DNA from: Bilabrum cf. latius
Lineage: Eukaryota
Direction of reading: 5' to 3'
DNA: 55,300 nucleotides
Assembly: GCA_965178125.1 (NCBI GenBank)
Contig: OZ237761.1
Span: forward strand, 868,001 to 923,300
Shown here: positions 15,401-54,403 of the stretch, one piece after another
Position numbering within the stretch: position 1 is the stretch's first letter
How the letters are laid out: each line of letters opens with the position of its first letter
The notes under the pieces: generated by a model
What the model saw: the letters and a program-made list of their open reading frames with translations, nothing else
Told to the model about the DNA's origin: nothing
The model's database searches: none
Made by a program: the position numbers and the translations under genes

Positions 15401-15850
15401 GCCCTGCGTGGTGTTGGAGGAGGCTTGAGGTCTCTCGTGCGGCCTAGCGCTGGTGCAGCGGCTGGCATGAACCAGACCGTGACCTTGGACGAGCACGTGC
15501 TGCTGGTTTCTTCGTTCACCGCTGCCTCTGGGCTGCAGGACCCAAACTTAAAGATCGTGAGCGTCAAAGAGGCACAGCCACTGCCCTACGACGGGCCCAA
15601 AGTGCTGGAGGACGTATGCGAATCGCAGTGGGAGGTCGAGGTGCAGTGGGATCAGAGCGCCGCCTTTGTTTGGTTGAGCACGCCGCTGGACGGGTTCTGG
15701 TCGGACAACGGGTTCTTCGGCATGGTAGAGAAGCCAGGGCAGGCCGAGACCCGCACGCTGCGGTTCTTTGCTCGTGAGAGCGGGGTGTCGGAGGGCTCGC
15801 TGCAATCCTCGCTACGCGTGTGGTCACTGTGGGACTCTGCCGACTACTGA
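12461..15850 (+). CDS. MANBA: Beta-mannosidase (GH2), secreted or lysosomal; exons 12461-13006, 13122-14468, 14591-15850; 3 in-frame TAG
   Basis: Signal peptide, ATVPG, SFGWDWG, RGSNFVP, NMIRIWGGGLY, VWQDAMF, GNNE, RFMSEFGLQSWP, YWQSNNDWPGASW; GTGAG...GCAG introns restore the frame; ends TGA. Confidence 0.92.
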
Positions 15851-23159: not shown

Positions 23160-26100
23160 ATGCAGGCCGAAATGGGCCAGACAGCCTGGAAGGCGGAGAA
23201 CAACTTGGTTGGTTCGATGTCAGGTGACCATTTTTCTGTAATTTAGAGCGATGGAGAGTCCCTGGCGTGTTCCAACGCTGAAGGTGTGTCGTTCCTAGAC
23301 TTCAAGAGTGGCAAGCTAATTGATTCTATACAGGATTACACAGACGAAGCTAGCTCTGGAAAAATAGTTTGTTTTGAAATGTCGCCGAACGGAGAGCTCA
23401 TGTTATGTGCGACGGACACTCAGTCTCTGCAGCTGTGGTCTGTTGGGGATCGAACACTTCTTCGAAATTGGCGCGCTCATAAGTTTCCCGTCGTAGCGAT
23501 CAGTTGGGATGAGTCGAGTACACTGGTGGCCACGGCTAGCTCAGACCGCACGTCCATCGTTTGGGATGCCATGCGAGGATTCGCTACCCACACACTGCCG
23601 CCGCTGCCAGGGGTTCCAAGCTTGCTTCGATTTGCTCGTACATCGTCTGCATCAGCCAATTCTTTGGAAGTTTGGACAGGATCTTCTACTGGTGAGTACT
23701 CTGTCCGAGTGACAGATCTGATGCAGCCAGTTTCGGGTAAACCAGGCTCTGGCAGGAGGCCTCGCCTCAAGCAGTTGCTGCTGGATGGCCACCACGCTCC
23801 AGCTGTGGACGTGGCATTCGATTCAATGCCGGGCCAGGCATACACTGTCGCAGCTACAGTGGGGCGGGACCGAGTGATGCATCTCTGGACGCCGTCTTCC
23901 TCGACTGGCAAGGGCCGGGCCCGCAAGCCAGTCGCGACACGCGCCCTGCTGGAGCACGCGGAGGCCATCGTGTCGCTAGGAGTGCGCGGGGAGCTTTCAG
24001 GTGCTGGCAGCCAGGTGGTGCATGCTGGGGCTGGCAGCAAGTCACGTCGGGCCAAGCGCGGGAGAATGGCCCGCCAGCGTGCAGGGGAAGATGCTGAAGG
24101 CGAAGGCAAGGACGAAGCCAAATCCGAGGCCGGGGCTGGAGCTGGTGGACCTGAAGGCCAGTGGAGTACCTGGTGGGTGGCGACCGCTGGGGACTCTGGG
24201 CTAGTGCGACTCTGGGCTATCAGCAGGGGGGCTGGCGATGGCAGTTTCTCTGTGTCTGAAGCAGCCCGCGTGAGGCTGTCGGCGCTGCTGGCGAGCCCCT
24301 CCAAGTGGATGGGCTCCGGCGAGCTGGCGCCCACGCTACCGGGAACCACCGCTAGTTCTGGGGCCGGCCAAGCCAAAGAAGCAGCCGAGGCCCCGATCAG
24401 CGAGCAGGTGTCCTGCATGCGGCTCTCTTGGACTGCATCCTCTCGGCGCGGAGGGCTCTCATCGGTCGTGCTGGCCACTCGGGACAGGTCCATCGCACAG
24501 CTAGACTTCCGGGCGCGGGGTGGCGCAGTGGGCGGTGGGACGAAGGCTATGGGGGGCTCTGCGAGCATGGAGCAAGCTGCGGCGATCCGAGTGCGGCGAG
24601 TCATCGTGGGTCACTCTGACGAGGTGCTGTCCATTGGCTTCACACATCCCTCTGGGCCCAGGTGGACGAACCTGCCTGCTGCCCGCGGACTCGACCGAGC
24701 TGCGCCCATGCTGGTGGCGGCTAACTCGCCGTCCCTTCGCCTCGTGTCTCCCAGGGACTTTGGAGTGCAGTTGCTGCTGGGACATACTGCGACCATCGTA
24801 TGCGTCGCCCCATCACCCGATGGAGCTTTCGGTGCATCCGGCTGCAAAGGCGGGTGGATTAGGGTGTGGTGCTTGCGCAGGATGGTGTGTATCGCAGCAG
24901 TCCAAGCCCACGACGATTCCGTGACAGCCCTGACGTGGCCCTCGCGAGCGGGACCATTCGGTCGCGGGGACAAGTCCGCGGGCTGGATCGTGTCGGCCGG
25001 TGCAGACGGATCGGTAAAGCGGTGGGACGTGGCAGCATGCCTCGCAGACGCGGACGCAGCCGCGGTATCAGGCACTGAGGCCGCGCAGGATCATCCAGTA
25101 GCCTCAGCTGACTGCGTGGCCTCGGAGCTGGCACACTCGAAGGGTGTCAATGCCGTGGCAGTGTCTCCAAATGACAGAGTACTGGCAGTTGCATCCCAGG
25201 ACAAGACTGTGTCTGTCTGGGATGCAGGTGTACCATCCACATCGAACCCGAAGGCAGGAGGCCTCGCGCGCGTAGGTGTGCTCAAGGGCCATCGAAGGGG
25301 TGTGTGGTGCTGCGAGTTCAGCCCAATTGAACAGATCGTCGTGACTGGGTCGTCAGACAAGACGATCCGATGCTGGAACGCGCGCACTATGCAGTGCATG
25401 CGGACTCTGGAGGGGCATGGAGCATCTGTTCTCCAGGTCCGGTTCTGCAATGGAGGCAAGGACCTCGTGTCGGCGGCAGCTGACGGCATACTCAAGGTGT
25501 GGAGCATGCAGGCAGCAGCGTGCAAGTTCACTGCGGATGCACACGCCGATCGGGTGTGGGCCCTTGCTGTGCCCAAGACCAGGGATGCTGCTGACCAGGG
25601 GGGAGAGGAGTCGTCGTCTCCGCCTGTGGTCGCCGTGTCTGGTGGTGCAGATGGAACCATCCGGGTGTGGCGAGACCACACGAGCTAGCTCAAGCAGGAG
25701 GCATCGCAGGCCCAGCTCCGCAAGGCTTCAGCCGAGAGTAGTCTGGCAGCTGCAATGGCTGGGAGGAGATATGCCACTGCCTTTTCACTTGCGCTGGAGC
25801 TCGAGCAGCCCCGACGATTGCGTGCCATTCTCGAAGAACTGCTGGATGTTGGCCCCAGGCCCCCGAGGCCGGGCCAAGGGAGCGCCGCCCTGAGGTTCCT
25901 TTCCACTGCCACGAGCGACTGGGTGGCGGCCATGCATGCGGAGCACCAGCTCATGGCAGTCGAAGGTGGCATATCTGGCAAGGCCTCGGGTGCCAGTTCT
26001 GGTGCAGGCACTGGTGGAGAGCAAGGAGAGGGGGAATCGCAGAGCGAGCATTCTGCCGGGGCTCCTATTGCACCGGGGGGAATCTTGCAAACCACCGGTG

Positions 26101-27008
26101 CTGAGATCCGCCGATTAGTGGTGGACGAGGCAAGGAAGTTCGTGAGCGCAGGAGGGAACGCCACTGCCGCCCTATCCGCAGCGAGTGAGGGTCGCGATGG
26201 CAGACTCGTGGACTTGGATGAGCTGCGAGGGCACGGCCCACGCGAAGCAGTGGCCGCAGCCCTTCGGAAGCTATGGCTCAGGGACCCGCGCAAGCTGCCG
26301 CAAGAGGGGTTCCTGCGGCTCTGTGACATGTGCAGAGAGCTTGCGATCCGCTCGGCGGCCGAGATGGAGCTGCGAGCACAGTCTCGTAGTGGGCCCTCCT
26401 CGTCCTCTTCGTCGTCGCCCGCTTCATCTTCCGCAGGCGGGCCTGCCGTGGTGCAGTCAGCTGTGAAGCTGTCCGATGCCGCGCGCGCTCTTCTTGGATT
26501 TGACGCTGGGGACACAGAGGTCGGGCGATCGGCCCAAGGGGAAGATGGTGATGTTACAGTAGGCCCGAGCTCCGCACGCTTGGATAGATTCCTGCAATAC
26601 GTGCAGCAGTGGGCGACGCAGGCCCGCACTGCCAGTATTGCTTAGAGTAGCCTTGCAGCTGTCCTGCAAGCTGTTCCACGGTCTGTGCTGCTGCAGCTTC
26701 CCACGGCCCCGCAGTTGTTTGCTGCCGTTGCGGGATACAGCGAGCGGCATGCGGCTCGGGTGCAGCGAAGTCTGCAGGCTGCGGCCACTGTAGATTTTAC
26801 GCTCCAAGCTTGGGACACCATGGGAGCCACCGCAGCATCAAGCCAAGCAGTGGCATCGAGTGCTTCCAGACAACGTACGCCGAGCACAGAGGCGATCGGC
26901 TCGAAGCGCAGTAGGTCGAAATCGTTGGTTGAGCGCGTTGCAGACGCGACTGCAAGGGACGATGCACCATCCGGATCGGTGGCGAAGGCAAAGAAACGCA
27001 GGCACTGA
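23160..27008 (+). CDS. UTP13: U3 snoRNA-associated WD40 protein UTP13/TBL3; intronless; TAG at 23244, 25686, 26643
   Basis: WD40 repeats (KGHRRGVW, LEGHGASVL, AHADRVWAL); Utp13 C-terminal domain ALELEQPRRL, LQYVQQWATQARTASIA*, YSERHAARV..VDFTL; ends TGA. Confidence 0.92.
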
Positions 27009-27405: not shown

Positions 27406-30191
27406 TCCGAATCCCCTTGCGACCATAACTGTCCCAACCAACTGCAACTGTCCCAAGATTCAAATGCGACCACTTCTTGAGCTCATACAGGTCTCAATTC
27501 TAGAGTTATGCAAGCATCCTCCTCCAGTTCTAAAGAATCATCAATACTCGACGCAATTGACGACTCGGATACTCGGGCTATCCTTCAGGTGTCTGTGGAT
27601 GACGTGAATCGTGTGCTCGCTTGGCGCACGGCCTTGGAGCAATCGGTAGAAGAATGCACAGCTGAGCAGCCTGAGATGCGACTATATGAAGCGCAGCAAG
27701 CAGATTATATAATTTACAAGCAAAAGCTTTAGGTGTGGAGGGAGAGAAATCCCGGTAAGGTTCAAAATGACAGTGAAATCTACCGAGAGATTCAAAATGA
27801 GGTGTACCCAGAAAAGACGTTTAGCGCTGTCCGGAAGCGATTCCAGCGAATCTAGCAACGATTAACGTGCCCCCTACAGGATTTGTGTTGGCGAACAGAT
27901 TTGCCCTAGTATGTTGAACGGGCACTTGCGAAGCTGGTCATATTGCGAGAGGATGAGAAGGTGCCGTTCACGCTTGAAGGACTGCGCCGAACTGCAACAG
28001 GCCTTCGCAACGACTTTTGTGCTGGTTCACACAAGGATGGGGTGCCACTATCGCGTGTGTGGTCAACCAGATTTCTAAAGGCTCATAAACTGAAGGATTT
28101 GCAAGGTGAAGAGAAGACAATCAATCGTAGCGTGGCGGAGAGCCACACGTGCTTGCTGGACTGGTTTGGCGAAGGAGCAGCAAAACGAGGCCTGGTACTC
28201 AATACTGAGCTTGGCGTCGTCGTGTCAGGGACGTGCATTTATCACGAACGATTGTAGTTAAACATAGATGAGACTGTGATCATACTGCATGCCCAGCCAG
28301 GGTAGGGCGCAAGGGTTGACGGGGCGGACCGTCTGGTGGTCAGGGCCGAATCGCCCCGTGCTGCGCTTCGCGCGACGCATTTTTCCAATACAAACGTATC
28401 ATTCGTTCCTGTTGTATCAGCGAAGGATGGAATTGTTGCTGGCCTTCTCGTTTTCCGCTACGATGGCAAGTCTCAAAAGGTCAAACGCGAGATCCAGCGC
28501 GAGCAGGAATATGTGGCAGCCCGGTTGCAACGTGCGCAAGCCCAGCGCGATGCGGGCAAGCTCGACGACGACGGCCTGAAGGCGGAGCTCGAGGATATTC
28601 TAGCTGAGGTAAGGCTATCTGGGAATGTTGTGGACCCCTCGTCTGTCCAGAAACTCTTCTTGGTGCTAGCCAAGACGGACATCGAGCTCCTCGACATCAT
28701 CGTGTTCTGTGCGACCCCCTCCGGCTACAGCAACGTCGGGTCCTTGTCCCTGCTGCTTCCAAAGATCGTGGAGTACGCAGCTAGAGTGCGAAGGGAAGAG
28801 AGGCTCCCTCCCACAGCTAGAGTACTGCTCACGATGGACAACCACTCGACGCATGACCAGCGGAGCCTCAGGAAGTTCTGCGCTGCCAACAACATCGACA
28901 TCGAGCTCCTCCTTCCAATGAGCACCCACTTCCTGCAGCCCCTGGACGTCGCGTGCATGTCGTCCTTCAAAGCAGAGCTTCGTGGTGTTAAGAAAGACTT
29001 CTGTGTCTATCTGAGCTAGCTTCATTTCATGGAAGCATTCATGGCGTCTGCCCCGGAGGCGAAGAAGTCGGCACTAGCGAAGGCGTCGTGTGACGCGATC
29101 GGGGAGGAGTGGATCGCACCGCTGGTCTTGACCTGTGCAAGCCACAGCTTTCGAGCTTCGAATGCTGCTAGTGGATTCAAGAAGTGCGGACTTCTCCCGT
29201 TCAACCCTTCCGTTGTAGTTGACATGGACAAAGTCAAGCAGCACAGGGCCACGCTACAGAGGGCCCGGGAGGGGGCCAGTGGTAGTGAGCTGTCAGACGT
29301 AGCCAAAATACTGGAGAGTATCCCGACAGAGTCAGGATCTTTCGTGAAGAGTACTACGGCTGCCAGTGGAGCAGGCGCATCTGAGCCGTAGTCATCATCC
29401 TCGTCTGCTGTGCTTGGGCCTGCCACGGCTGACAACCTCGGGGGACTGGCGAGCGCACAGCGCGTGGTGAGCGCCCATGATGCCCTGGCGAAGAGACGCC
29501 CCAACACGGCTGCATTCCTGAGATTAGCAGGTTTGGGGCTTCAAGCAAAGATTGAAAGCGCAGCTCGGGCACAACAATCTCAGAAAAGGCGACCAAGGCT
29601 GAAGGGGCTGCAAGGCAACCGTGGGGCCATCGGGCCCCGGGGGGGCGGGGGTGACGCCGCTTAGCTGCGGAAAAATCAGATGCGCGACCGCCCACTCTAG
29701 GATCAGTCCACAGATGAGATTATTGAGCAGCTTGAGGAGGCTAGAGTCAACCTGGACGCAATGAGAGCTCAGAATCAGGCCCTCAAGGCCAAGATCGCGA
29801 AGATCTAGGCTGCAAGCAACAAGAGGGCCATGCCAGCTTCAAAGAAGCGTCGAACTTAATATTTTTATATATGATTATACTGCTATTATACTGGAAACCT
29901 GAAAAAAAAGTGTGAAATGCGAGATATTTAGGACTTTGAAGTTGGGACAGTTGTGATTTTTACCAGGCGCGATCATGCCGGCCGCCAAGGCCGCCATCTT
30001 TGGTCGGTCATAGCTTGAAGAGAACATGTCGTCCTGAAAATCTGGTTACAGTTTTGAAATCTCCTTGAAAACCTGCTTCATTACCGAAAAGGACAGGGCC
30101 ATAGTTGGACATTATTGCTCCGAATTTTGCGACTGAAGTTGGGAATTTTGCCGTTCAGCTTGGGACAGTTATGGTCGCAAGGGGATCCGGA
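27406..30191 (+). mobile_element. pogo/Fot1-like (Tc1-mariner superfamily) DNA transposon, ~2.8 kb
   Basis: 32-bp terminal inverted repeats 27406-27437 (TCCGAATCCCCTTGCGACCATAACTGTCCCAA) and 30160-30191 with one mismatch, enclosing a DDE transposase; TA lies to the left but there is no clean right TSD. Confidence 0.88.
27508..29859 (+). CDS. DDE_1 / CENP-B-like transposase (783 aa with TAG=Gln; 10 in-frame TAG)
   Basis: NIDET...LTMDNHSTH...THFLQPLDV with 35 residues between the last two Asp (DD35D); SGFKKCGLLPFNP; one frame with no TAA/TGA until TAA 29857. Confidence 0.9.
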
Positions 30192-30659
30192 ATCCTTTAT
30201 CAGCAGCACTCCACAGGCCAATATTTTGGTTTCTTCGGGTGATTTCAAGCAAACTCAAGTTGCATTAACTGTTTGCTCCAACTACCAGTGCAGATATATG
30301 CGGGTTTCCCGGAGGCAGGCGTCTGCACTTTGCCGCGTTGAGTTTGTGCGACGTGTCCAGGGCAGAATCCCCAAGTTGCTCATTACCTAGAACGAGCTCA
30401 ATCTGAATCAAGTTAGATATTTTGACGGTGTAGGCTTATGGTCTCACGAAAATTAGTTGTTCCTTTGCTTTCGAGGTCAATCCAATTGCATTGCTGCGTG
30501 ATCGACAACCATTAATCGCAGGCTTTCACCATTGACAGCGTAGTGAGAACCAATAGATTGTATGAACCACTTTCTGCATTGGTACGACCAGTTCGGAGAC
30601 CTTTGGTATCAGCGAGGTGTTGCTCAACTGCCCAAGACTCCAGCTGGCGTTAGCCAGTG

Positions 30660-33600
30660 ATGCAGACCTGGATACAGACCTTCAAGACGTCACTTAAACT
30701 TCGAAATATTGGACGCATGACGTGGCTTGTGCAAAACAAGTTGGGCGACGTGGTTAGCCTGGTTCCCAGCGTTTAGGAGTGTCAGGACGTGGAAAAACAG
30801 TGTTTATTGCTGAAGCACCTCGGGAGGGCCGCTATCGACGCTCCGCACCTCGTGATTAATCTAAAGGATGACTAGGAGCTCTCCGCTCGTGATGTTATGA
30901 GTGCATTCGATCGAAGCACTGGGGATCAAGCAAGGGGTCCCATGACAAACGGCAGCGAGACCTGCTTCGAGATGGCTGCGCCGCTAGCCGAGATTGACGC
31001 CAGTCTTCTTGGCACGGTCCTGGACACCCAACATCGAGGGTTCATTCTGTCCGATGCATATACGAATGGTATTAGAGAGCTTGACCGTGCTATTCAAGGT
31101 GTGCTGAAGGAGTTGCCAGCAGCAACAAGGAGAGCTCGAGAGGAGGCCCTGGCCGATATCGCGGATGGCCGCCCCCCGAAGGGCTACCTCAAGGACGCGC
31201 ACTATTTGGATGTGCCTGACTGCAGCTGGGTTCCACAACTCAGCAAGCGTGCAGAAGAAGTGGAGTTTGAAATCAAGGGCGATTTCAAGGGACCCGACCT
31301 GGAGACTGCCGTGAGGAACCGCATCGCCAGTGCAGCAGACTCAGACGTCAGCTCAATTGTTGCAGCGGTCCGAGATTCGCTTCTGCTGATTGGAGAGGCG
31401 TCAGTTGCTGTGAGCGGCTTCCAAGGATTTATGGATGCACCAATTCTTCCTATCGTGGACGCAAGGTGTGGGTCTCAACGTGAGGGTTGGTTAGACTTGT
31501 TCATCTCAGAATCTCTCACGGCCAACACTTTGGGAGCATCTTCAGTTATGCGTGGCGGTGTGGTCACAGGCTTCAAAGGATGCGGCAAGTCTGAGCTTAT
31601 TTAGAACGTGATCTTTGGAAAGGCACTCATGCGATGGGCACTAGCACCATCGGGCGATAAACCCTCGGGTTCCAAGTCGGCAGCAAGCCTGGCATTCCAT
31701 GCAAGGCTGAGCTCGGTACCGACAATGACCCACGTCGGTATCTACGTCAAGGACCCCACCGGACATATTGGTGACTTGAGGTATGCCAGCCCAGTTGCAT
31801 TAATTGCCGCTGGCCTGACCAAGCTAGGGCTCATAGATGCCGACAGTCCGCCTATATGGGCCATACCAGACGAGCTCACCCCCACCTCCATGGGACGCTG
31901 GCTTTCAGAGCATAACATCCACGTTGCGCTGGCCATCGATGAAGCTCAAAAGGTGCAGATGTCACCCGAAGGATCCGAGGACTGGCATTACCGTGCCATG
32001 GCCCGCAAGTACTGGAATATCCTGGAAGACATGTTGAGGATGCAGGAGGGCAAGCCCACGGTCTTCTTGACCGGCTCCCACAAGAACCTAGCCAAGGAAG
32101 TGTATGGTCCTGTGCGTGGGCACCGGGTGCTACAGGGTGACAAGTTTCTTGTCCGCACACTGCCCAATACGTATTCTGAACCGGAACTGCACCTCATGTT
32201 GCTGCGGTAGCAACCACAAAAACAGCAACCCGACTGCGTCAATCCCAAGCAACTGAATCCCCCGCTCAAATGGCCTTCGGTATCTGCGGCTGATGCGGTT
32301 CTGGCCTTGACGTACTACTTGCGCAAGCGAGATAACTTCAAGATTGGGAAGTGGTGGCACCAGGTTGGGTACCTTATGCAGCCCAGTTTGAAACACCTTG
32401 TGCACTTAATCTAGTCTGGGTTATCGGTTCAGGATGCACGGAATACCAAGGGTGCCTCGGTCGGCAGAATTACTGTCGAAATTGCTCAGAGGCATCTGCA
32501 AGACCATCGGGTGCTTAATGCTGCGAAATTGGCCCGCGAGCGGGTCGTTCGCGCGTATTTGCTGAATGGGGTTCTTGCAAGGAGCCTTGGGGAGCTTGGA
32601 GGGACTAGCGTTAACTTCAAGAATTATGTCAAGGCGATGATGGATCGCAAAACGCTTTTCAGCAGGTTTGCAGTTGCGCTCGTGCGAGCCTCTGCCGCAG
32701 ACTCTGCAAGCGAGCAAGCGATGCTCAACCATGACGATCCTCTCCAAGCCATGCCGCGAGTATCACTGTCCGCCGTCATGGTCTACTTGGAAGAGGTCAG
32801 CAATGAATTGCTCCCGCCAGATCGGGTTGCGTCAGATCGTCAGTATTATGAAGATAAGCTCCATGCTTTGCTGCGAGATTGGCACGACAACCAGTGGGTA
32901 GTGTACTACTCTCCCGAGGAACAGGAGTTCAACGAAATTGAGCCGCAGCTTGGCTCGGGGCATGTGCAGCTGCCCAATCTGGCATACGCAAGAGTAGCCC
33001 TGCAGGTCGATCTCACCCGCCAGGTGACCTCCCGACGGGTGACAACGGAGAAGAGTACGACTTAGTAATCGCCGAGTCTCTACATCGTTATTTCAAGTCC
33101 AAGGTACTGGACAAGGGCCGCCTGCCTTCTTTGCCGAGAGACGTGTAGACTTCGGAGCCTGGGGTGCTGAAGCTATCATGGGATCGAAGTAGTCCGTCTG
33201 CGCCCAACACCAATAGCTTCAGTCGGGCCGCATTGACGGTGGGGGAGTTGGTGGCAATGGAAGTCTGCAGGTGGCCTCGTCCTAGCAATTCTTGGCCTTT
33301 GGTCAACTATTCAAGGAGCTTCCAGACCGATTCGGAGCTGATCTCGCCATGGTTCTGCGGCAGAGAACCAAGGCCAGCCGCTAGAAGCCTATCTATAACG
33401 TGGTTCGTATCCAAGTCAAAGCCGGGTTCTCGCAAAAACCAGTACTTGGCGCTAGCAAATTGAAGAAATTGCTTTGCCAGGATACGCAGGCAGAGGCTCA
33501 CCGGTGGTATTGCAGCTTTTTTGGTGAGGACCCCACCTCTAGCAACGTGGTCATGCACTGACTCCTCATTACTAGCAAGCCTGTGAATGACGCTGTGCAA

Positions 33601-33975
33601 AACCTGGCTAGCCATTTGGAGACGACAAACCCCATATCTGTAGCGATGGGGAGAAAGCAGCGCCCTGGCAGGAAGCCCGAGCCGATCCCGCAGCAGGAGA
33701 ACATGGACGTGATCTACGGAGATGACCTGCCGGAGTTGCTATTCGCCGATGCGCGACTATACTTGGCTAGGAGACGGGTCCTGCTGAGCGAATCTGAAGA
33801 AGATGCACGTGAAGCCTAGTAGGCGCTGCAGCTTGTCCTCAGGGAGGTTTTCGGCGAGCTTGCTCTCGGAATCGCTAGTAAGAAGGCCGGCAACTTGGAT
33901 TCAATCAACCTTGCTGAAGCCCACTGGGAGCAGCGCAAGCTCACCAGTGGTGTTACTAGTTCTGTGGTTCTATGA
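30660..33975 (+). pseudogene. NTPase-nuclease gene copy 1: NTPase half open to TAA 33066-33068, nuclease half disrupted
   Basis: Walker A GFKGCGKS and Walker B ALAIDEAQ; compared with copy 3 there is a frameshifting deletion near 33020, a second frameshift near 33200-33280, and CGA>TGA at 33559; start codon uncertain. Confidence 0.75.
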
Positions 33976-33999
33976 ATCATGATCCGCCGCAAGGGATTC

Positions 34000-34261
34000 T
34001 TCTTCCTATCGTGGACGCAAGGTGTGGGTCTCAACGTGAGTTTTGGTTGGACGTGTTTCTCAAGGAAGCATTCGCGACCACAACTTTCGGGTCATCTGTA
34101 ATGCGTGGCGGTGTGGTCACAGGCTTCAAAGGATACGGTAAGTCCTAGCCGATACGGAATGTTATCTTTGGAAAGGCACTCATGCGTTGGGCACTTGAAC
34201 ACTCGGGAGAGCCATCTATGGATTCGCTTCGAAGGGCGAGCTCGAAACCCAACGTGACCCA
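34000..34261 (+). pseudogene. Fragment of the copy-3-type NTPase gene (Walker A region)
   Basis: Near-identical to 41094-41355 (GFKGYGKS variant). Confidence 0.85.
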
Positions 34262-34273
34262 AGCAACATCTCT

Positions 34274-34973
34274 GCTGACTGCGAGGCCTCGGAGCTGGCG
34301 CACTCGAAGGGTGTGTCAATGCCGTGGCAGTGTCTCCAAATGACAGAGTACTGGCAGTTGCATCCCAGGACAAGACTGTGTCTGTCTGGGATGCAGGTGT
34401 ACCATCCACATCGAACCCGAAGGCAGGAGGCCTCGCGCGCGTAGGTGTGCTCAAGGGCCATCGAAGGGGTGTGTGGTGCTGCGAGTTCAGCCCAATTGAA
34501 CAGATCGTCGTGACTGGGTCGTCAGACAAGACGATCCGATGCTGGAACGCGCGCACTATGCAGTGCATGCGGACTCTGGAGGGGCATGGAGCATCTGTTC
34601 TCCAGGTCCGGTTCTGCAATGGAGGCAAGGACCTCGTGTCGGCGGCAGCTGTCGGCATACTCAAGGTGTGGAGCATGCAGGCAGCAGCGTGCAAGTTCAC
34701 TGCGGATGCACACGCCGATCGGGTGTGGGCCCTTGCTGTGCCCAAGACCAGGGATGCTGCTGACCAGGGGGAGAGGAGTCGTCGTCTCCGCCTGTGGTCG
34801 CCGTGTCTGGTGGTGCAGATGGAACCATCCGGGTGTGGCGAGACCACACGAGCTAGCTCAAGCAGGAGGCATCGCAGGCCCAGCTCCGCAAGGCTTCAGC
34901 CGGGAGTAGTCTGGCAGCTGCAATGGCTGGGAGGAGATACGCCACTGCCTTTTCACTTGCGCTGGAGCTCGAG
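34274..34973 (+). pseudogene. Captured internal fragment of UTP13, copy a
   Basis: Near-identical to 25107-25805 with small indels (extra GT, short deletions). Confidence 0.92.
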
Positions 34974-35478
34974 TTTGAAACGTGCACATAGTGTTCGGAT
35001 GTGGTAGATTTCTAAATTCCAGCAGCACTCCACAGGCCAATATTTTGGTTTCTTCGGGTGATTTCAACCAAACTCAAGTTGCATTAACTGTTTGCTCCAA
35101 CTACCAGTGCAGATATATGCGGGTTTCCCGGAGGCAGGCGTCTGCACTTTGCCGCGTTGAGTTTGTGCGACGTGTCCAGGGCAGAATCCCCAAGTTGCTC
35201 ATTACCTAGAACGAGCTCAATCTGAATCAAGTTAGATATTTTGACGGTGTAGGCTTATGGTCTCACGAAAATTAGTTGTTCCTTTGCTTTCGAGGTCAAT
35301 CCAATTGCATTGCTGCGTGATCGACAACCATTAATCGCAGGCTTTCACCATTGACAGCGTAGTGAGAACCAATAGATTGTATGAACCACTTTCTGCATTG
35401 GTACGACCAGTTCGGAGACCTTTGGTATCAGCGAGGTGTTGCTCAACTGCCCAAGACTCCAGCTGGCGTTAGCCAGTG

Positions 35479-38400
35479 ATGCAGACCTGGATACAGACCT
35501 TCAAGACGTCACTTAAACTTCGAAATATTGGACGCATGACGTGGCTTGTGCAAAACAAGTTGGGCGACGTGGTTAGCCTGGTTCCCAGCGTTTAGGAGTG
35601 TCAGGACGTGGAAAAACAGTGTTTATTGCTGAAGCACCTCGGGAGGGCCGCTATCGACGCTCCGCACCTCGTGATTAATCTAAAGGATGACTAGGAGCTC
35701 TCCGCTCGTGATGTTATGAGTGCATTCGATCGAAGCACTGGGGATCAAGCAAGGGGTCCCATGACAAACGGCAGCGAGACCTGCTTCGAGATGGCTGCGC
35801 CGCTAGCCGAGATTGACGCCAGTCTTCTTGGCACGGTCCTGGACACCCAACATCGAGGGTTCATTCTGTCCGATGCATATACGAATGGTATTAGAGAGCT
35901 TGACCGTGCTATTCAAGGTGTGCTGAAGGAGTTGCCAGCAGCAACAAGGAGAGCTCGAGAGGAGGCCCTGGCCGATATCGCGGATGGCCGCCCCCCGAAG
36001 GGCTACCTCAAGGACGCGCACTATTTGGATGTGCCTGACTGCAGCTGGGTTCCACAACTCAGCAAGCGTGCAGAAGAAGTGGAGTTTGAAATCAAGGGCG
36101 ATTTCAAGGGACCCGACCTGGAGACTGCCGTGAGGAACCGCATCGCCAGTGCAGCAGACTCAGACGTCAGCTCAATTGTTGCAGCGGTCCGAGATTCGCT
36201 TCTGCTGATTGGAGAGGCGTCAGTTGCTGTGAGCGGCTTCCAAGGATTTATGGATGCACCAATTCTTCCTATCGTGGACGCAAGGTGTGGGTCTCAACGT
36301 GAGTTTTGGTTAGACTTGTTTCTCAAGGAAGCATTCGCGACCACAACTTTCGGGTCATCTGTAATGCGTGGCGGTGTGGTCACAGGCTTCAAAGGATGCG
36401 GCAAGTCTGAGCTTATTTAGAACGTGATCTTTGGAAAGGCACTCATGCGATGGGCACTAGCACCATCGGGCGATAAACCCTCGGGCGATAAACCCTCGGG
36501 TTCCAAGTCGGCAGCAAGCCTGGCATTCCATGCAAGGCTGAGCTCGGTACCGACAATGACCCACGTCGGTATCTACGTCAAGGACCCCACCGGACATATT
36601 GGTGACTTGAGGTATGCCAGCCCAGTTGCATTAATTGCCGCTGGCCTGACCAAGCTAGGGCTCATAGATGCCGACAGTCCGCCTATATGGGCCATACCAG
36701 ACGAGCTCACCCCCACCTCCATGGGACGCTGGCTTTCAGAGCATAACATCCACGTTGCGCTGGCCATCGATGAAGCTCAAAAGGTGCAGATGTCACCCGA
36801 AGGATCCGAGGACTGGCATTACCGTGCCATGGCCCGCAAGTACTGGAATATCCTGGAAGACATGTTGAGGATGCAGGAGGGCAAGCCCACGGTCTTCTTG
36901 ACCGGCTCCCACAAGAACCTAGCCAAGGAAGTGTATGGTCCTGTGCGTGGGCACCGGGTGCTACAGGGTGACAAGTTTCTTGTCCGCACACTGCCCAATA
37001 CGTATTCTGAACCGGAACTGCACCTCATGTTGCTGCGGTAGCAACCACAAAAACAGCAACCCGACTGCGTCAATCCCAAGCAACTGAATCCCCCGCTCAA
37101 ATGGCCTTCGGTATCTGCGGCTGATGCGGTTCTGGCCTTGACGTACTACTTGCGCAAGCGAGATAACTTCAAGATTGGGAAGTGGTGGCACCAGGTTGGG
37201 TACCTTATGCAGCCCAGTTTGAAACACCTTGTGCACTTAATCTAGTCTGGGTTATCGGTTCAGGATGCACGGAATACCAAGGGTGCCTCGGTCGGCAGAA
37301 TTACTGTCGAAATTGCTCAGAGGCATCTGCAAGACCATCGGGTGCTTAATGCTGCGAAATTGGCCCGCGAGCGGGTCGTTCGCGCGTATTTGCTGAATGG
37401 GGTTCTTGCAAGGAGCCTTGGGGAGCTTGGAGGGACTAGCGTTAACTTCAAGAATTATGTCAAGGCGATGATGGATCGCAAAACGCTTTTCAGCAGGTTT
37501 GCAGTTGCGCTCGTGCGAGCCTCTGCCGCAGACTCTGCAAGCGAGCAAGCGATGCTCAACCATGACGATCCTCTCCAAGCCATGCCGCGAGTATCACTGT
37601 CCGCCGTCATGGTCTACTTGGAAGAGGTCAGCAATGAATTGCTCCCGCCAGATCGGGTTGCGTCAGATCGTCAGTATTATGAAGATAAGCTCCATGCTTT
37701 GCTGCGAGATTGGCACGACAACCAGTGGGTAGTGTACTACTCTCCCGAGGAACAGGAGTTCAACGAAATTGAGCCGCAGCTTGGCTCGGGGCATGTGCAG
37801 CTGCCCAATCTGGCATACGCAAGAGTAGCCCTGCAGGTCGATCTCACCCGCCAGGTGACCTCCCGACGGGTGACAACGGAGAAGAGTACGACTTAGTAAT
37901 CGCCGAGTCTCTACATCGTTATTTCAAGTCCAAGGTACTGGACAAGGGCCGCCTGCCTTCTTTGCCGAGAGACGTGTAGACTTCGGAGCCTGGGGTGCTG
38001 AAGCTATCATGGGATCGAAGTAGTCCGTCTGCGCCCAACACCAATAGCTTCAGTCGGGCCGCATTGACGGTGGGGGAGTTGGTGGCAATGGAAGTCTGCA
38101 GGTGGCCTCGTCCTAGCAATTCTTGGCCTTTGGTCAACTATTCAAGGAGCTTCCAGACCGATTCGGAGCTGATCTCGCCATGGTTCTGCGGCAGAGAACC
38201 AAGGCCAGCCGCTAGAAGCCTATCTATAACGTGGTTCGTATCCAAGTCAAAGCCGGGTTCTCGCAAAAACCAGTACTTGGCGCTAGCAAATTGAAGAAAT
38301 TGCTTTGCCAGGATACGCAGGCAGAGGCTCACCGGTGGTATTGCAGCTTTTTTGGTGAGGACCCCACCTCTAGCAACGTGGTCATGCACTGACTCCTCAT

Positions 38401-38806
38401 TACTAGCAAGCCTGTGAATGACGCTGTGCAAAACCTGGCTAGCCATTTGGAGACGACAAACCCCATATCTGTAGCGATGGGGAGAAAGCAGCGCCCTGGC
38501 AGGAAGCCCGAGCCGATCCCGCAGCAGGAGAACATGGACGTGATCTACGGAGATGACCTGCCGGAGTTGCTATTCGCCGATGCGCGACTATACTTGGCTA
38601 GGAGACGGGTCCTGCTGAGCGAATCTGAAGAAGATGCACGTGAAGCCTAGTAGGCGCTGCAGCTTGTCCTCAGGGAGGTTTTCGGCGAGCTTGCTCTCGG
38701 AATCGCTAGTAAGAAGGCCGGCAACTTGGATTCAATCAACCTTGCTGAAGCCCACTGGGAGCAGCGCAAGCTCACCAGTGGTGTTACTAGTTCTGTGGTT
38801 CTATGA
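35479..38806 (+). pseudogene. NTPase-nuclease gene copy 2: open to TAA 37897-37899, same nuclease-half lesions as copy 1
   Basis: Near-identical to copy 1, plus a 15-bp duplication near 36480 and a copy-3-type tract at ~36301-36365. Confidence 0.75.
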
Positions 38807-38830
38807 ATCATGATCCGCCGCAAGGGATTC

Positions 38831-39092
38831 TTCTTCCTATCGTGGACGCAAGGTGTGGGTCTCAACGTGAGTTTTGGTTGGACGTGTTTCTCAAGGAAGC
38901 ATTCGCGACCACAACTTTCGGGTCATCTGTAATGCGTGGCGGTGTGGTCACAGGCTTCAAAGGATACGGTAAGTCCTAGCCGATACGGAATGTTATCTTT
39001 GGAAAGGCACTCATGCGTTGGGCACTTGAACACTCGGGAGAGCCATCTATGGATTCGCTTCGAAGGGCGAGCTCGAAACCCAACGTGACCCA
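38831..39092 (+). pseudogene. Second fragment of the copy-3-type NTPase gene
   Basis: Repeat of 34000-34261 at +4831. Confidence 0.85.
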
Positions 39093-39104
39093 AGCAACAT
39101 CTCT

Positions 39105-39804
39105 GCTGACTGCGAGGCCTCGGAGCTGGCGCACTCGAAGGGTGTGTCAATGCCGTGGCAGTGTCTCCAAATGACAGAGTACTGGCAGTTGCATCCCAGG
39201 ACAAGACTGTGTCTGTCTGGGATGCAGGTGTACCATCCACATCGAACCCGAAGGCAGGAGGCCTCGCGCGCGTAGGTGTGCTCAAGGGCCATCGAAGGGG
39301 TGTGTGGTGCTGCGAGTTCAGCCCAATTGAACAGATCGTCGTGACTGGGTCGTCAGACAAGACGATCCGATGCTGGAACGCGCGCACTATGCAGTGCATG
39401 CGGACTCTGGAGGGGCATGGAGCATCTGTTCTCCAGGTCCGGTTCTGCAATGGAGGCAAGGACCTCGTGTCGGCGGCAGCTGTCGGCATACTCAAGGTGT
39501 GGAGCATGCAGGCAGCAGCGTGCAAGTTCACTGCGGATGCACACGCCGATCGGGTGTGGGCCCTTGCTGTGCCCAAGACCAGGGATGCTGCTGACCAGGG
39601 GGAGAGGAGTCGTCGTCTCCGCCTGTGGTCGCCGTGTCTGGTGGTGCAGATGGAACCATCCGGGTGTGGCGAGACCACACGAGCTAGCTCAAGCAGGAGG
39701 CATCGCAGGCCCAGCTCCGCAAGGCTTCAGCCGGGAGTAGTCTGGCAGCTGCAATGGCTGGGAGGAGATACGCCACTGCCTTTTCACTTGCGCTGGAGCT
39801 CGAG
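39105..39804 (+). pseudogene. Captured internal fragment of UTP13, copy b
   Basis: Repeat of 34274-34973 at +4831. Confidence 0.92.
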
Positions 39805-40309
39805 TTTGAAACGTGCACATAGTGTTCGGATGTGGTAGATTTCTAAATTCCAGCAGCACTCCACAGGCCAATATTTTGGTTTCTTCGGGTGATTTCAACC
39901 AAACTCAAGTTGCATTAACTGTTTGCTCCAACTACCAGTGCAGATATATGCGGGTTTCCCGGAGGCAGGCGTCTGCACTTTGCCGCGTTGAGTTTGTGCG
40001 ACGTGTCCAGGGCAGAATCCCCAAGTTGCTCATTACCTAGAACGAGCTCAATCTGAATCAAGTTAGATATTTTGACGGTGTAGGCTTATGGTCTCACGAA
40101 AATTAGTTGTTCCTTTGCTTTCGAGGTCAATCCAATTGCATTGCTGCGTGATCGACAACCATTAATCGCAGGCTTTCACCATTGACAGCGTAGTGAGAAC
40201 CAATAGATTGTATGAACCACTTTCTGCATTGGTACGACCAGTTCGGAGACCTTTGGTATCAGCGAGGTGTTGCTCAACTGCCCAAGACTCCAGCTGGCGT
40301 TAGCCAGTG

Positions 40310-43300
40310 ATGCAGACCTGGATACAGACCTTCAAGACGTCACTTAAACTTCGAAATATTGGACGCATGACGTGGCTTGTGCAAAACAAGTTGGGCGACG
40401 TGGTTAGCCTGGTTCCCAGCGTTTAGGAGTGTCAGGACGTGGAAAAACAGTGTTTATTGCTGAAGCACCTCGGGAGGGCCGCTATCGACGCTCCGCACCT
40501 CGTGATTAATCTAAAGGATGACTAGGAGCTCTCCGCTCGTGATGTTATGAGTGCATTCGATCGAAGCACTGGGGATCAAGCAAGGGGTCCCATGACAAAC
40601 GGCAGCGAGACCTGCTTCGAGATGGCTGCGCCGCTAGCCGAGATTGACGCCAGTCTTCTTGGCACGGTCCTGGACACCCAACATCGAGGGTTCATTCTGT
40701 CCGATGCATATACGAATGGTATTAGAGAGCTTGACCGTGCCATTCAAGGTGTGCTGAAGGAGTTGCCAGCAGCAACAAGGAGAGCTCGAGAGGAGGCCCT
40801 GGCCGATATCGCGGATGGCCGCCCCCCGAAGGGCTACCTCAAGGACGCGCACTATTTGGATGTGCCTGACTGCAGCTGGGTTCCACAACTCAGCAAGCGT
40901 GCAGAAGAAGTGGAGTTTGAAATCAAGGGCGATTTCAAGGGACCCGACCTGGAGACTGCCGTGAGGAACCGCATCGCCAGTGCAGCAGACTCAGACGTCA
41001 GCTCAATTGTTGCAGCGGTCCGAGATTCGCTTCTGCTGATTGGAGAGGCGTCAGTTGCTGTGAGCGGCTTCCAAGGATTTATGGATGCACCAATTCTTCC
41101 TATCGTGGACGCAAGGTGTGGGTCTCAACGTGAGTTTTGGTTAGACTTGTTTCTCAAGGAAGCATTCGCGACCACAACTTTCGGGTCATCTGTAATGCGT
41201 GGCGGTGTGGTCACAGGCTTCAAAGGATACGGTAAGTCCTAGCTGATGCGGAACGTGATCTTTGGAAAGGCACTCATGCGTTGGGCACTTGAACACTCGG
41301 GAGAGCCATCTATGGATTCGCTACGAAGGGCGAGCTCGAAACCCAACGTGACCCACGTCGGTATCTACGTCGATGACCCTACCGGATCGATCGGTGACTT
41401 GAGGTATGCCAGCCCGGTTGCGCTGATTGCCGCCGGTCTTGCAAAAGCAGGGATCATAAATGCCAACAGTCCGCCCAACTGGGCCAGGACTACATGCCAG
41501 CTCACTCCTAAACTCATGGGAGAGTGGCTGTCGGAACACAACATCCACGTTGTGCTGGCCATGGACGAAGCTCAAAAGGTGCGCATACCTGATGAAGGAT
41601 CCAGGGACTGGCACTACCGAAAAATGGTATCCGAGTTTTGGACGATCATGGCCGACATGATAAACATTGAGCAGCGGAGGCCCACAGTCTTCTTGACTGG
41701 CTCGTAGAAGGGCCTAGCTAAAGAAGTGTATGGGCCAGTTGATGGGCGCGATGTGCTTCAGGACGACAAATTTCTCGTCAATGCAATGCCCAATGTGTAT
41801 TCTGAACCGGAACTGCACCTCATGCTGCTTCGGCAACAACTCTCAAGTGATCAGGAACCTGACGACGTTTCTGAATAGCAGCAAGGTGCGCCGTTTGAAC
41901 GCCGCTCAGTGACAGCAGCTGATGCAGTTCTAGCCTTGGCATTCTGCTTGCGCAAGCAGGGCGGCTTCAAGCTCGGTCAGTGGTGGCACCAGGCTGGGTA
42001 CCTTGTTCAGCCCAGTTTGGAACACGCATTGCGCTCACTCTAGCCTGGTTCACATGTTCAGAATGGCAAGAGTGCACCGGTCGGCAGGATTACCCTGGAA
42101 ATCGCTGAGAGGCACCTGAAAGACAACGGAGTACTTGCCTCGGCAAAATCCGCCAATGACCGTATCTTGAGAGCGTATATGCTGAACGGGGTAATTGCAA
42201 GGAGCCTGGGGGCGCTCCAGGGGACTAGTGTCAAGTTCAGATCTTACATAAGGGCGATGACGGACCGCAAGTCTCTGTTCAGCAGATTTGGAGTTGCTCT
42301 CGCTCGAGCTTCTCTTGCAGGTGGTGCAGCAAGCAAGCAAGCGATGCTCGACCTCGATGATCCTTTCCAGGGCATGCCGCTAGTATCATTGTCTACCGTC
42401 AAGGTCTACTTGAAACAGGTCAGCGATGAATTGCTGCCGACAGATCAGGTTACCTCAAATTGCCTCAAGTACCAAGATGGGCTTGATGGTTTGTTGCGTA
42501 AGTGGCACGATGACTAGTGGTTGATATACCACACTCCTGAGGAGCAGAAGTTCAATCAAATCAAACCGCACTCTGGGTACGTGCAGTTTCCTAACCTGGC
42601 ATACACAAGAGTGGCGCTGCAGGTCGATCTCACCCGAGACATCTTCTTGACAGTTCGGGAGCAACAGGCACTTGACCTTCCGACGGGTGACTTCGGAAAG
42701 GGTTATGAGATGGTAATCGCTGAGTCTTTGCGGCGCAATTTCAAGTCCAAGGTAGTACAAGACGAGAAGCGGCTGCCATCTTTGCCCGCAGACGTGTACT
42801 CCTCGAAACCTGGTGTATTGGAGCTGGCTTGGGATCGAATGAAACCGTCCTCACCCGACCAGCTGCTTCGATTGGAAGAGCTGGGAGATTCCGGGACTAA
42901 GCGCAAGAAGCGTCGACCTGGGATTGTGGTTAGGCAATTCTCGGCTTTTGGTCAAATTTTCAGGGAGCTTCCGGACTAGTTCGGCGCTGATCTCGCCATG
43001 GTGCTGCGAAGCAACGCCAGTCCCGAGAATGCTGACAAGTAGATCTTTCACGTCATTCGGATTCAGGTCAAGACTGGCTCTCAATCCCAAGTAAATGACG
43101 CTAGCGATCTGAAGCAGATGCTTTCCCAGGATACACGAGCCGATGTCCATCAAAGGTACTGTAGATTGCTTGGCGAGGACCACACCTCGGGCAAAGTGGT
43201 AATGCACCGACTCCTCGTCACTAGCAAGCCTGTGAATAAGCCTATGCGCAAGCTGGCCGGCCAAGCATAGAAGGGAGAGAGGCGGCCCGGCAGGTAGCCC

Positions 43301-43591
43301 AAGCCAATCCCGCAGCAAGAGAACATGGACGTGATCTACGATGATGACCTGCATGAGTTGCTGTTCGCAGATGCACGGCTGTATCTGGCTAGGAGGCGAG
43401 TCCTGCTGAGTAAAACAGAAGAAGAGGCACGCCAAGCTTAGGAGGTGCTGAGTAGTGTCCTCAAAGAGGTTGAGCTCGAGCTTAAACTTGGATATGAAAG
43501 CATTGAGGCCGGCAAATTCGACTCAACCAGCCTTGCGGAAGCTTGGTGGAGTCAGCACCGGCACGTCAATGATATTCGCTAGCATATCTAA
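40310..43591 (+). CDS. Intact P-loop NTPase + PD-(D/E)XK nuclease-like protein (~1090 aa, ~13 in-frame TAG), Crinkler/RHS-effector-like; start uncertain
   Basis: GVVTGFKGYGKS (Walker A), VVLAMDEAQ (Walker B), VFLTGS; C-terminal GKGYEMVIAESL...GADLAMV...IRIQVKTG; single frame to TAA 43589. Confidence 0.72.
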
Positions 43592-43949: not shown

Positions 43950-44129
43950 TTAGGGTTAGGGTTAGGGTTAGGGTTAGGGTTAGGGTTAGGGTTAGGGTTA
44001 GGGTTAGGGTTAGGGTTAGGGTTAGGGTTAGGGTTAGGGTTAGGGTTAGGGTTAGGGTTAGGGTTAGGGTTAGGGTTAGGGTTAGGGTTAGGGTTAGGGT
44101 TAGGGTTAGGGTTAGGGTTAGGGTTAGGG
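43950..44129 (+). repeat. Telomeric (TTAGGG)n array 1, ~30 units
   Basis: Perfect TTAGGG repeats. Confidence 0.98.
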
Positions 44130-44185
44130 TATCTAATATAAAGTCAGGGACAGGGTCGGGGAAAAAAAATTTCATCTTCATTTTT

Positions 44186-44404
44186 TGTCGAAAATGTGCC
44201 CTCTGCGATCTCAGCAACTAGAATAGGTATGAAGATGATTCAAACTGTTTGGGGACGGCCTAGGGCCATATCATGGGGCAAATGTTCCCCAGGTTCCGTT
44301 TTGACCGCGCGGCGACGATACTGGCTGATGAAGATTTACATGTCGAAAATGTGCCCTCTGCGATCTCAGCAACTAGAATAGGTATGAAGATGATTCAAAC
44401 TGTT
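44186..44404. repeat. 64-bp direct repeat (44186-44249 and 44341-44404) in the spacer between telomeric arrays
   Basis: TGTCGAAAATGTGCCCTCTGCG...GATTCAAACTGTT present twice. Confidence 0.9.
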
Positions 44405-45092
44405 AGGGTTAGGGTTAGGGTTAGGGTTAGGGTTAGGGTTAGGGTTAGGGTTAGGGTTAGGGTTAGGGTTAGGGTTAGGGTTAGGGTTAGGGTTAGGGTT
44501 AGGGTTAGGGTTAGGGTTAGGGTTAGGGTTAGGGTTAGGGTTAGGGTTAGGGTTAGGGTTAGGGTTAGGGTTAGGGTTAGGGTTAGGGTTAGGGTTAGGG
44601 TTAGGGTTAGGGTTAGGGTTAGGGTTAGGGTTAGGGTTAGGGTTAGGGTTAGGGTTAGGGTTAGGGTTAGGGTTAGGGTTAGGGTTAGGGTTAGGGTTAG
44701 GGTTAGGGTTAGGGTTAGGGTTAGGGTTAGGGTTAGGGTTAGGGTTAGGGTTAGGGTTAGGGTTAGGGTTAGGGTTAGGGTTAGGGTTAGGGTTAGGGTT
44801 AGGGTTAGGGTTAGGGTTAGGGTTAGGGTTAGGGTTAGGGTTAGGGTTAGGGTTAGGGTTAGGGTTAGGGTTAGGGTTAGGGTTAGGGTTAGGGTTAGGG
44901 TTAGGGTTAGGGTTAGGGTTAGGGTTAGGGTTAGGGTTAGGGTTAGGGTTAGGGTTAGGGTTAGGGTTAGGGTTAGGGTTAGGGTTAGGGTTAGGGTTAG
45001 GGTTAGGGTTAGGGTTAGGGTTAGGGTTAGGGTTAGGGTTAGGGTTAGGGTTAGGGTTAGGGTTAGGGTTAGGGTTAGGGTTAGGGTTAGGG
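44403..45092 (+). repeat. Telomeric (TTAGGG)n array 2, ~115 units
   Basis: Perfect TTAGGG repeats. Confidence 0.98.
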
Positions 45093-45391
45093 TATCTGGG
45101 GGTCATGTTAGGATCGGGGCACGCCCTTTTTTTGACCAAAAAAAAAAACGCCGCACATTATATATATTTAGATAGCCCTTGATCAGTAGAGCTGATTTAT
45201 GGTTGGTTGGCGGCACTCATTTCCAATATTGAGTGAGATATGGGGAGGTTTAGGGTCACCAGTTGAGCGGATGATTTTGGCAGGTCGTTTTAGGCATGTT
45301 CAAAGACGAATGGCCATTTGATTGTCTATGTTGTTATCAGAAATGGCCAACAATATGGTATGCATAGCTTGTGTGCCCTGGTTGGGCATTC

Positions 45392-54221: not shown

Positions 54222-54403
54222 ACGCGGATGGCAGAAGACAGGGGATCGTCCGGATCCCGCGTGTCGTCTATTTCTGCGATCAAACTGGCAAGAGAGCGAT
54301 GTTCGGCTCTTACGGCTTGGTCGATGACCGCCCAAAATTCAGCTTCCAGAGCCACGCTGGTGCGGTGTCCGTGCAGGGAAACCGATCTTTTCTGGAGCGC
54401 CAT
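54222..54403 (-). CDS. Bacterial ribbon-helix-helix (RHH_4-type) protein, 3'-truncated at the telomere junction
   Basis: KRSVSLHGHRTSVALEAEFW..SLASLIAEID..LSSAIRV, a typical alphaproteobacterial RHH protein. Confidence 0.85.

Follow-up and report, generated by a model that had tools for sequence, protein, structure and literature searches.

The nuclear genome of Bilabrum cf. latius very probably reads UAG as glutamine (Gln) and retains both UAA and UGA as stop codons, that is, judging from the sequences analyzed here, it uses a genetic code of the table 15 type. The starting point was a 55.3-kb stretch of DNA (hereafter, the window), the last 55.3 kb of contig C27 (G000:C27:868001-923300) in a 48.6-Mb, 111-contig assembly, for which an earlier note had proposed that UAA remains a stop codon uncoupled from UAG, as opposed to the common UAR=Gln code. 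The evidence within the window is weak, for reasons given below, and the proposal was therefore tested on ~0.9 Mb of stretches and loci beyond it, some of them overlapping or organellar. Dynein heavy chains, the release factor eRF1, and a coding-sequence model, all from outside the window, bore out the separation of UAA from UAG.

The meaning of UAG was read primarily from eight dynein heavy chain genes, whose 3' 10 kb form single open frames of ~3,300 codons each (26,451 codons, including 75 TAG, 1,010 CAG, 103 CAA, 0 TAA, and 0 TGA). Each alignment column was scored against the 25 nearest of 269 homologs, and columns conserved at ≥92% were considered strong. At the strong columns, TAG stood opposite Gln in 11 of 16 cases (Arg and Lys once each, Glu in the rest), compared with 168/183 for CAG, 18/18 for CAA, 1/267 for GAG, and 0/238 for tyrosine codons (TAY); a first-pass comparison had placed 16 of 21 TAG codons opposite Gln. 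Averaged over columns, the residues opposite TAG (Q 0.32, E 0.14) likewise resemble those opposite CAG (Q 0.33, E 0.09) and CAA (Q 0.36, E 0.13), unlike those opposite GAG (Q 0.06) or TAC. In-frame TAG occupies a conserved Gln position in eRF1 as well: 190 of 199 homologs have Gln at the column of its codon 48, a TAG. Where 80 or more coding codons preceded the codon in question, coding signal persisted beyond it for 101 of 180 TAG and 125 of 218 CAA codons, compared with 0 of 68 for TGA and 1 of 12 for TAA (a set that takes in dynein ends, eRF1, and a few intronic stops), and the open frame ran 40 codons beyond TAG in 167 of the 180 cases. Overall, UAG accounts for ~6-9% of Gln codons. The recoding probably extends to a related species represented by a metagenome contig (L192; 82% nucleotide identity to the eRF1 gene described here, with 218 of 236 codons having the same meaning), in which one TAG was seen where CAG stands in this genome. 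PRP8 (4 TAG and 0 TAA in 2,791 codons, ending in TGA) was not used for residue identity, as two of its TAG codons fall, by eye, in conserved regions away from clear Gln columns.

UAA, by contrast with UAG, ends conserved genes. Among 18 dynein loci, the Dynein_C match reaches the end of the domain in 16 (L128 and L135, in which the profile match stops short of it, were left out of the count), and in all 16 the first TAA or TGA follows 3-6 codons on, with no intervening TAG: 13 of these ends are TGA, 3 are TAA, and none is TAG. The eRF1 gene ends in DFI-TAA, the Cafeteria eRF1 likewise ends in DFI, and L192 has TGA at the codon of the terminal TAA; thus, either codon can close the same gene. 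Were TAA to encode Gln and be used relative to TAG at the CAA/CAG ratio, 7.6 TAA codons would be expected in the dyneins, where none is seen (P=5e-4), so that the comparison of terminal and internal TAA in conserved genes, which the earlier note had named as a check, came out in its favor in the sampled loci. The other loci were assessed with a codon-position Markov model, counting codons with coding signal on both sides; in the 58,644 codons thus obtained, there were 225 TAG, 319 CAA, 1,948 CAG, 1 TAA, and 2 TGA, against 37 TAA expected. Across four model settings (43,104-58,644 codons), internal TAA numbered 1, 1, 1, and 2 and internal TGA 0, 2, 5, and 7; internal TAA, being no commoner than internal TGA, is thus at the false-positive level. 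Of the model-called ends, 11 of 79 are TAA, which amounts to ~14% TAA and ~86% TGA, i.e., UGA is about six times as frequent as UAA.

Several observations weigh against this assignment. Less than 2% of the genome was examined. At the strongly conserved dynein columns, Glu stands opposite 3 of 16 TAG codons, compared with 5 of 183 CAG codons. No TAA was found among 45 matches to an xDEL-plus-stop pattern (19 TGA, 16 TGG, 10 TAG), in an unenriched scan (92 control matches) in which 4 of 30 fetched matches resembled true endoplasmic reticulum protein ends, all TGA. In eRF1 (residues are in human numbering, yeast plus 3), Thr32 is kept within an intact GTS motif, as opposed to the T32G change of the Iotanema type, and the L69Q change is not diagnostic, as it is shared by 8 of 199 homologs and the 8ip8 chain. 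The lack of a UUA-anticodon tRNA, which would fit the assignment, holds for 48 Rfam matches, from a survey that scored only 63 of 780 candidates, and for two pattern scans, whose patterns miss intron-containing and long-arm tRNAs. In-frame TAA was encountered twice. The first (G000:C2:428541-428543) is codon 222 of a 533-codon open reading frame (ORF) ending in TGA (G000:C2:427878-429479; L190:878-2479), which encodes a membrane-type protein, has a third-position GC content (GC3) of 0.81 before the TAA and 0.86 after it, and is single-copy, with no paralog, no relative in the JGI scan, and no Pfam family above the cut-off; its TAA could equally stem from a nonsense mutation in the sequenced allele, from an error in the assembly, or from genuine rare readthrough. 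The second lies in the frame of a transposase that we take, from its motif, to be pogo-like, and is present in both copies found. These copies are 99% identical, and because the differences between them mostly change residues, the TAA looks like a product of sequence decay.

The two in-frame TAA codons raise the alternative that UAA is mostly a stop and is read as Gln rarely or in some contexts, as a weak dual meaning or an early step toward UAR=Gln. The C2 gene looks intact and coding-type sequence continues for 311 codons beyond its TAA, TAA is scarce among the model-called ends, and eRF1 is altered, all of which would suit such a code; however, one substitution (TAG to TAA or CAA to TAA) or an error in the assembly suffices to account for the C2 case, the transposase copies look decayed, the dyneins are free of TAA, internal TAA does not exceed internal TGA over the four settings taken together, and no tRNA-UUA was found among the candidates scored. 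We therefore regard rare sense reading of UAA as improbable. A dual-meaning code of the Condylostoma or Blastocrithidia type, with one codon regularly serving as both sense and stop, is not what these data show either, with internal TAA at background and TAG at no verified gene end, although a rare exception may exist.

Under the favored reading, UAG would be a minor Gln codon served by one dedicated tRNA(CUA), unable to pair with the A of UAA, with UAA and UGA both serving as stops and UGA preferred in a genome with GC-rich codon ends. A single tRNA gene with anticodon CUA was indeed found (G000:C23:907607-907679; 69.8 bits, the second best of the 48 Rfam matches), along with two Gln(CUG) genes and one Gln(UUG) gene. 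The first tRNA pattern was too strict, missing both Gln(CUG) genes, and was rerun in a looser form; a D-arm pattern added one Arg tRNA, three TTA-like pattern matches were rejected, as they do not fold as tRNA, and the His, Asp, Leu, most Ser, and Val(AAC) tRNA genes fall outside the compared set. Within this set, tRNA-CUA has 20 of 24 acceptor and anticodon stem bases in common with Tyr(GUA), including two compensatory pair changes, compared with 12/24 for Gln(CUG) and 6/24 for Gln(UUG); the maximum among 304 unrelated tRNA pairs is 17. Identity over the full length of the tRNAs discriminates less (Tyr 50/73, Gln(UUG) 47/75, Gln(CUG) 44/73, Glu 44/73, Trp 43/73). The gene has C1-G72, described as an identity pair of eukaryotic tRNA-Tyr (PMC9976931), carries G73 instead of A73, and lacks G34, and its D arm is similar to those of Gln(UUG), Glu, Trp, and Arg(CCU). 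Taken together, the stems, identity elements, and D arm leave descent from tRNA-Tyr about evenly balanced, whereas Panek et al. expected a UAG-reading tRNA to stem from Gln(CUG) (PMC5304391). Charging of tRNA-CUA with Gln would be in line with the role of G73 and U35 as Gln determinants in bacteria and with the charging of amber suppressors of other tRNAs with Gln in Escherichia coli, as summarized in a review of tRNA identity whose table lists nothing for Gln in eukaryotes (PMC9976931).

The Tyr-like features of this tRNA, together with the slight Glu excess at TAG columns, are what could be adduced for UAG being read as Tyr or partly as Glu; UAG edited in the mRNA and sequencing errors belong to the same group of explanations. 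Of 22 TAG columns conserved at ≥80%, none has Tyr as its majority residue, compared with 299 of 336 for TAY, and one of the Glu-type TAG sites (WMYL) has CAG in a dynein paralog. Editing is contradicted by eRF1 contigs from runs X2 and X3, which come from two studies and differ from the gene by the excision of three GT-AG introns and by 0 other letters; hence, both TAG codons and the terminal TAA are unedited at the level of contigs, which lose rare variants, with the status of X2 and X3 as RNA resting on a tool's guess plus the splicing itself. With respect to sequencing errors, the public protein P0259, 98% identical to a dynein described here, ends exactly before a TAG, so that the codon recurs in other data; this end also implies that gene calling under the standard code truncates proteins of this lineage. 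Altogether, explanations of this kind are highly unlikely.

The ordinary UAR=Gln code (table 6), in which TAA would be rare merely through a preference for G or C in the third position, can be set aside with near certainty, for although high GC3 would make TAA the least used of the Gln codons and all ten housekeeping genes of the window end in TGA, the numbers of internal TAA predicted from CAA usage in the dyneins and by the model are not observed, reading TAA as Gln would append nonhomologous tails of 38 to >50 codons to three dyneins and of 14 codons to eRF1, and the eRF1 stop is swapped between TAA and TGA in related species, so that UAA as Gln with UGA as the sole stop is not the pattern found.

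A table-15-type code raises the question of how eRF1 ceases to recognize UAG. A single eRF1 gene was found (all three candidates were scored, the other two being pelota-like); it encodes 438 residues, with exon joints taken from the spliced contigs. Like Thr32, the residues S33, E55, NIKS, S70, C127, and F131 are intact. Several changed residues, clustered in the N domain, are absent or nearly absent from ~200 homologs, namely, A27T (0/184), R28K (2/110), G29A (0/183), N30D (0/183), I35V (0/196), S60V in TASNIKS (1/198), E107Q (0/199), and K130H (0/199), whereas the Cafeteria eRF1 has the consensus residues at positions 27-30, 35, 60, and 69. The N domain holds 10 of the 16 flagged positions and the rest of the protein, which is longer, the other 6, so this eRF1 is also generally divergent. 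Thr32 bonds the G of UAG and was changed in Iotanema (PMC5304391), the conformation of the GTS loop modulates selectivity, and I35 lies in the core above that loop (PMC3384315). In yeast eRF1, N30A was without effect and readthrough increased at every stop with L69A, slightly more so at UAG (PMC4381064); in the text of a yeast screen, I32F is the sole mention among the six positions searched (PMC12440015). No literature was found on changes at S60 or K130 or on substitution of G29. Recognition of UAG could have been weakened via A27T, R28K, G29A, N30D, I35V, S60V, and K130H, with E55, T32, S33, and S70 kept, and the residues just before Thr32 could shift the GTS loop. The earlier note had supposed an eRF1 that discriminates UAA from UAG; the unusual N-domain residues agree with this supposition, which is deduced rather than observed, Thr32 is kept, and tRNA competition could contribute.

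A more specific scenario, which we consider possible and put forward tentatively, is that this is the first nuclear code change in a stramenopile, brought about by a copy of tRNA-Tyr whose anticodon changed from GUA to CUA and which became a Gln acceptor through A73 to G73 and the D arm, with eRF1 losing UAG via the residues flanking the intact GTS rather than via Thr32. Both UAG codons of eRF1 lie in the N domain (2 of its 16 Gln codons, not above expectation), and if the scenario holds, residual termination at UAG would limit the synthesis of eRF1 itself.

The placement of the source organism rests on a dynein heavy chain region, for which the best named match is Cafeteria roenbergensis (71% identity), with the next named matches at ≤55%; Cafeteria is also the best named match of eRF1 exon 4 (69%). 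In a FastTree phylogeny of the query and 30 hand-picked homologs out of 120 (1,749 columns), the query groups with Cafeteria and two metagenome proteins with a local support of 1.0. As judged from this one gene tree, the organism is a bicosoecid stramenopile, sister to Cafeteria. Cafeteria uses the standard code, which fits its full-length predicted proteins (a judgment made from proteins, not DNA), and the code change would have arisen once, after the split from Cafeteria.

Separation of UAA from UAG is rare, with five eukaryotic cases or groups described in which UAG alone was reassigned to Gln or Leu, beyond one clade of ciliate metagenome-assembled genomes (MAGs), and one ciliate in which the two codons specify different residues (PMC5304391, PMC11687900, PMC10553269). 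The table-15-type code is known in Iotanema spirale, Hartmannula sinica, Trochilia petrani, and Protocruzia tuzeti (PMC5304391, PMC11687900, PMC10553269). As described by Panek et al. in 2017, Iotanema, a member of a different supergroup, likewise reads UAG as Gln and stops at UAA and UGA, but its dominant stop is UAA, its eRF1 has T32G, and its tRNA was only predicted, from tRNA-Gln(CUG) (PMC5304391); in the present genome, UGA is the main stop, T32 is unchanged, and there is a tRNA-CUA gene, which does not resemble a Gln(CUG) copy. The other three species are ciliates in which, according to McGowan et al. in 2024, UAG=Gln with UAA as a stop arose independently beside standard-code relatives (PMC11687900). 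Among them, UAA closes 91.9% of the genes of H. sinica, UGA has a share of 8-13% of ends, UAG makes up 18.5-31.8% of Gln codons, and the suppressor tRNA was undetected in the assemblies (PMC11687900), in contrast to the predominance of UGA and the lower share of UAG here. UAG alone was recoded also in the rhizarian exLh and in TARA phyllopharyngean MAGs, but to Leu, and the exLh eRF1 is changed at Leu69 (PMC5304391, PMC11687900), a residue that is Gln here as in some other eRF1s. In the table 6 code of Tetrahymena, ulvophytes, and hexamitids (PMC11687900), UAG is similarly read as Gln via tRNA-CUA, whereas here UAA stays a stop and the searches described above retrieved no tRNA-UUA.

We found no stramenopile or bicosoecid nuclear case in the literature, for which coverage of subscription papers and bioRxiv supplements was thin; a database record may already carry the code. 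These comparisons support the view that the present code is a new, independent member of the rare table 15 type, with a possibly new molecular route. Most of the known cases of separation are based on transcriptomes or on assemblies too poor for the tRNA or eRF1 to be examined, according to the accounts cited above. The 48.6-Mb assembly yields codon usage, one tRNA-CUA, and one eRF1 together, complemented by a sister genus with the standard code, which makes testable how one release factor retains UAA and UGA yet drops UAG. The changes in eRF1 would be natural candidates for improving amber suppression where the genetic code is to be expanded. Cafeteria hosts giant viruses, which would make the lineage described here a possible type of host for those giant viruses reported to use TAG=Gln; a catalogue listing code 15 among giant-virus genomes leaves Cafeteria and bicosoecids unmentioned in the part that concerns this code (PMC13524828).

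Within the window, which carries TTAGGG arrays and spliceosomal genes, the statements of the earlier note held, and the rule that it drew from them did not. All ten nonmobile genes end in TGA, and TAA is confined to mobile and NTPase genes; genome-wide, however, TAA closes the eRF1 gene and three of the 16 dynein heavy chain genes, so neither UGA termination of housekeeping genes nor the confinement of TAA is a rule. At a 15% share of TAA, ten TGA ends out of ten have a probability of ~0.2 by chance and thus reflect sampling. The 15 ORFs of the window (11,181 codons) contain 74 TAG, 145 CAA, 307 CAG, and 0 TAA, a result that is partly circular because TAA was treated as a stop when the ORFs were defined. 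The weight of the window evidence is low also because the transposase would meet a TGA four codons on if its TAA were read through, because the TAAs of NTPase copies 1 and 2 are out-of-frame stops, and because the TGA of copy 1 sits where nucleotide similarity has faded, beside a rearrangement.

The ten nonmobile genes, all on the forward strand unless stated otherwise, occupy the first half of the window. They encode an FRA10AC1-family protein (168..638; PF09725, E=1e-26; two in-frame TAG; start uncertain), a CCCH zinc finger and YTH protein (699..3494, reverse strand; PF04146, PF18345; five TAG), a kinesin with a central motor domain (4469..7909; PF00225, E=9e-100; five TAG), a reduced folate carrier family protein (8514..10352; PF01770; no TAG), OST48, represented by its last-exon frame (10792..12273; PF03345, PF23358), the 5' part being an intron or upstream exon, a beta-mannosidase-like glycoside hydrolase in three frames, with introns inferred (12461..15850; PF22666, PF17753, the latter match reaching profile position 81 of 81), a product without a Pfam match (15984..18179; nine TAG), a malonyl-CoA decarboxylase domain protein (18457..20952; PF05292; eight TAG), succinyl-CoA:3-oxoacid CoA-transferase (21227..22633, reverse strand; PDB 3dlx, E=1e-190; no TAG), in which TGA stands five residues past the last residue aligned to the human enzyme, and the UTP13/TBL3 WD40 protein (23160..27008; PF08625, PF00400; three TAG).

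These genes are followed, on the same forward strand, by a DDE_1 transposase (27508..29859; PF03184, E=3e-7; 10 TAG), which ends in TAA (29857-29859) and, as the earlier note had described, runs into AT-rich sequence (29% GC over the next 90 nt), and by three copies of an NTPase gene. Copy 3 (40310..43591) is an open frame of 1,093 codons with 13 TAG, ending in TAA (43589-43591), with a weak match to AAA_22 (PF13401, E=2e-4) below the cut-off; its layout and the subtelomeric repeats around it recall, in our assumption, Crinkler/RHS-type NTPase-nuclease genes. Copies 1 (30660..33975) and 2 (35479..38806) are broken alike, their repeat units being identical at 4,794 of 4,846 columns, and the frameshifts reported for them were confirmed: relative to copy 3, a frame-shifting deletion (near 33020 in copy 1) leads to an early TAA (33066-33068 and 37897-37899, respectively). 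Copy 1 then has an in-frame TGA (33559-33561) and, in alignment with copy 3, a homologous end at TGA 33973-33975; the two ends are close, as had been claimed, with 13 codons to the TAA of copy 3 and 15 to the TGA of copy 1 after the last aligned Trp. Each broken repeat unit (34260-34975 and 39090-39805) holds a fragment of UTP13, from ~25-26 kb, and an internal NTPase piece, the result of subtelomeric shuffling.

Two TTAGGG arrays (43952..45093, forward strand), recognized from sequence, lie toward the end of the window, which is also the end of contig C27. Two long ORFs without a Pfam match, 46628-48469 (613 codons) and 49782-53405 (1,208 codons), are located between telomeric arrays, the latter extending into a TTAGGG array. 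At 54200-55300, bacterial-type genes, SspB (Pfam E=5e-50) and RHH_4 (E=3e-20), are joined directly to the TTAGGG array, probably through a chimeric join with a bacterial contaminant.

Several features of the remaining tRNA genes were observed as well. Nuclear tRNA-Ile(GAU) is unusual in eukaryotes; two such genes are present (G000:C32:91173-91245 and C4:952092-952164), alongside Ala(AGC) and Thr(AGU). Position 54 carries A instead of T in several elongator tRNAs (Lys, Ile, Arg, Val, Asn). A family of CAU tRNAs (tRNA-Met loci on G000:C5, C7, C3, C9, and C25; L025, L067, L071, L078-L080) has acceptor and D arms that are nearly those of a Pro(UGG) gene, which lies 250 bases from one of them; the family is possibly mobile or derived.

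The mitochondrial genome is contig G000:C111 (L047-L050; 38,401 bp, 24.4% GC), with a tRNA-Trp(UCA). Its recognizable protein genes end in TAA and hold no TAG, an avoidance that would be safe if tRNA-CUA were imported, and only 10 tRNA genes were detected at the default ARAGORN score, which implies heavy tRNA import. Finally, a second 18S rRNA (G000:C95:6099-7900; L034) is located on a 17.9-kb contig and matches the tandem 1,700-nt 18S array on C12 at 1,438 of 1,675 aligned bases; it belongs to a co-sequenced eukaryote, presumably dinoflagellate-like.

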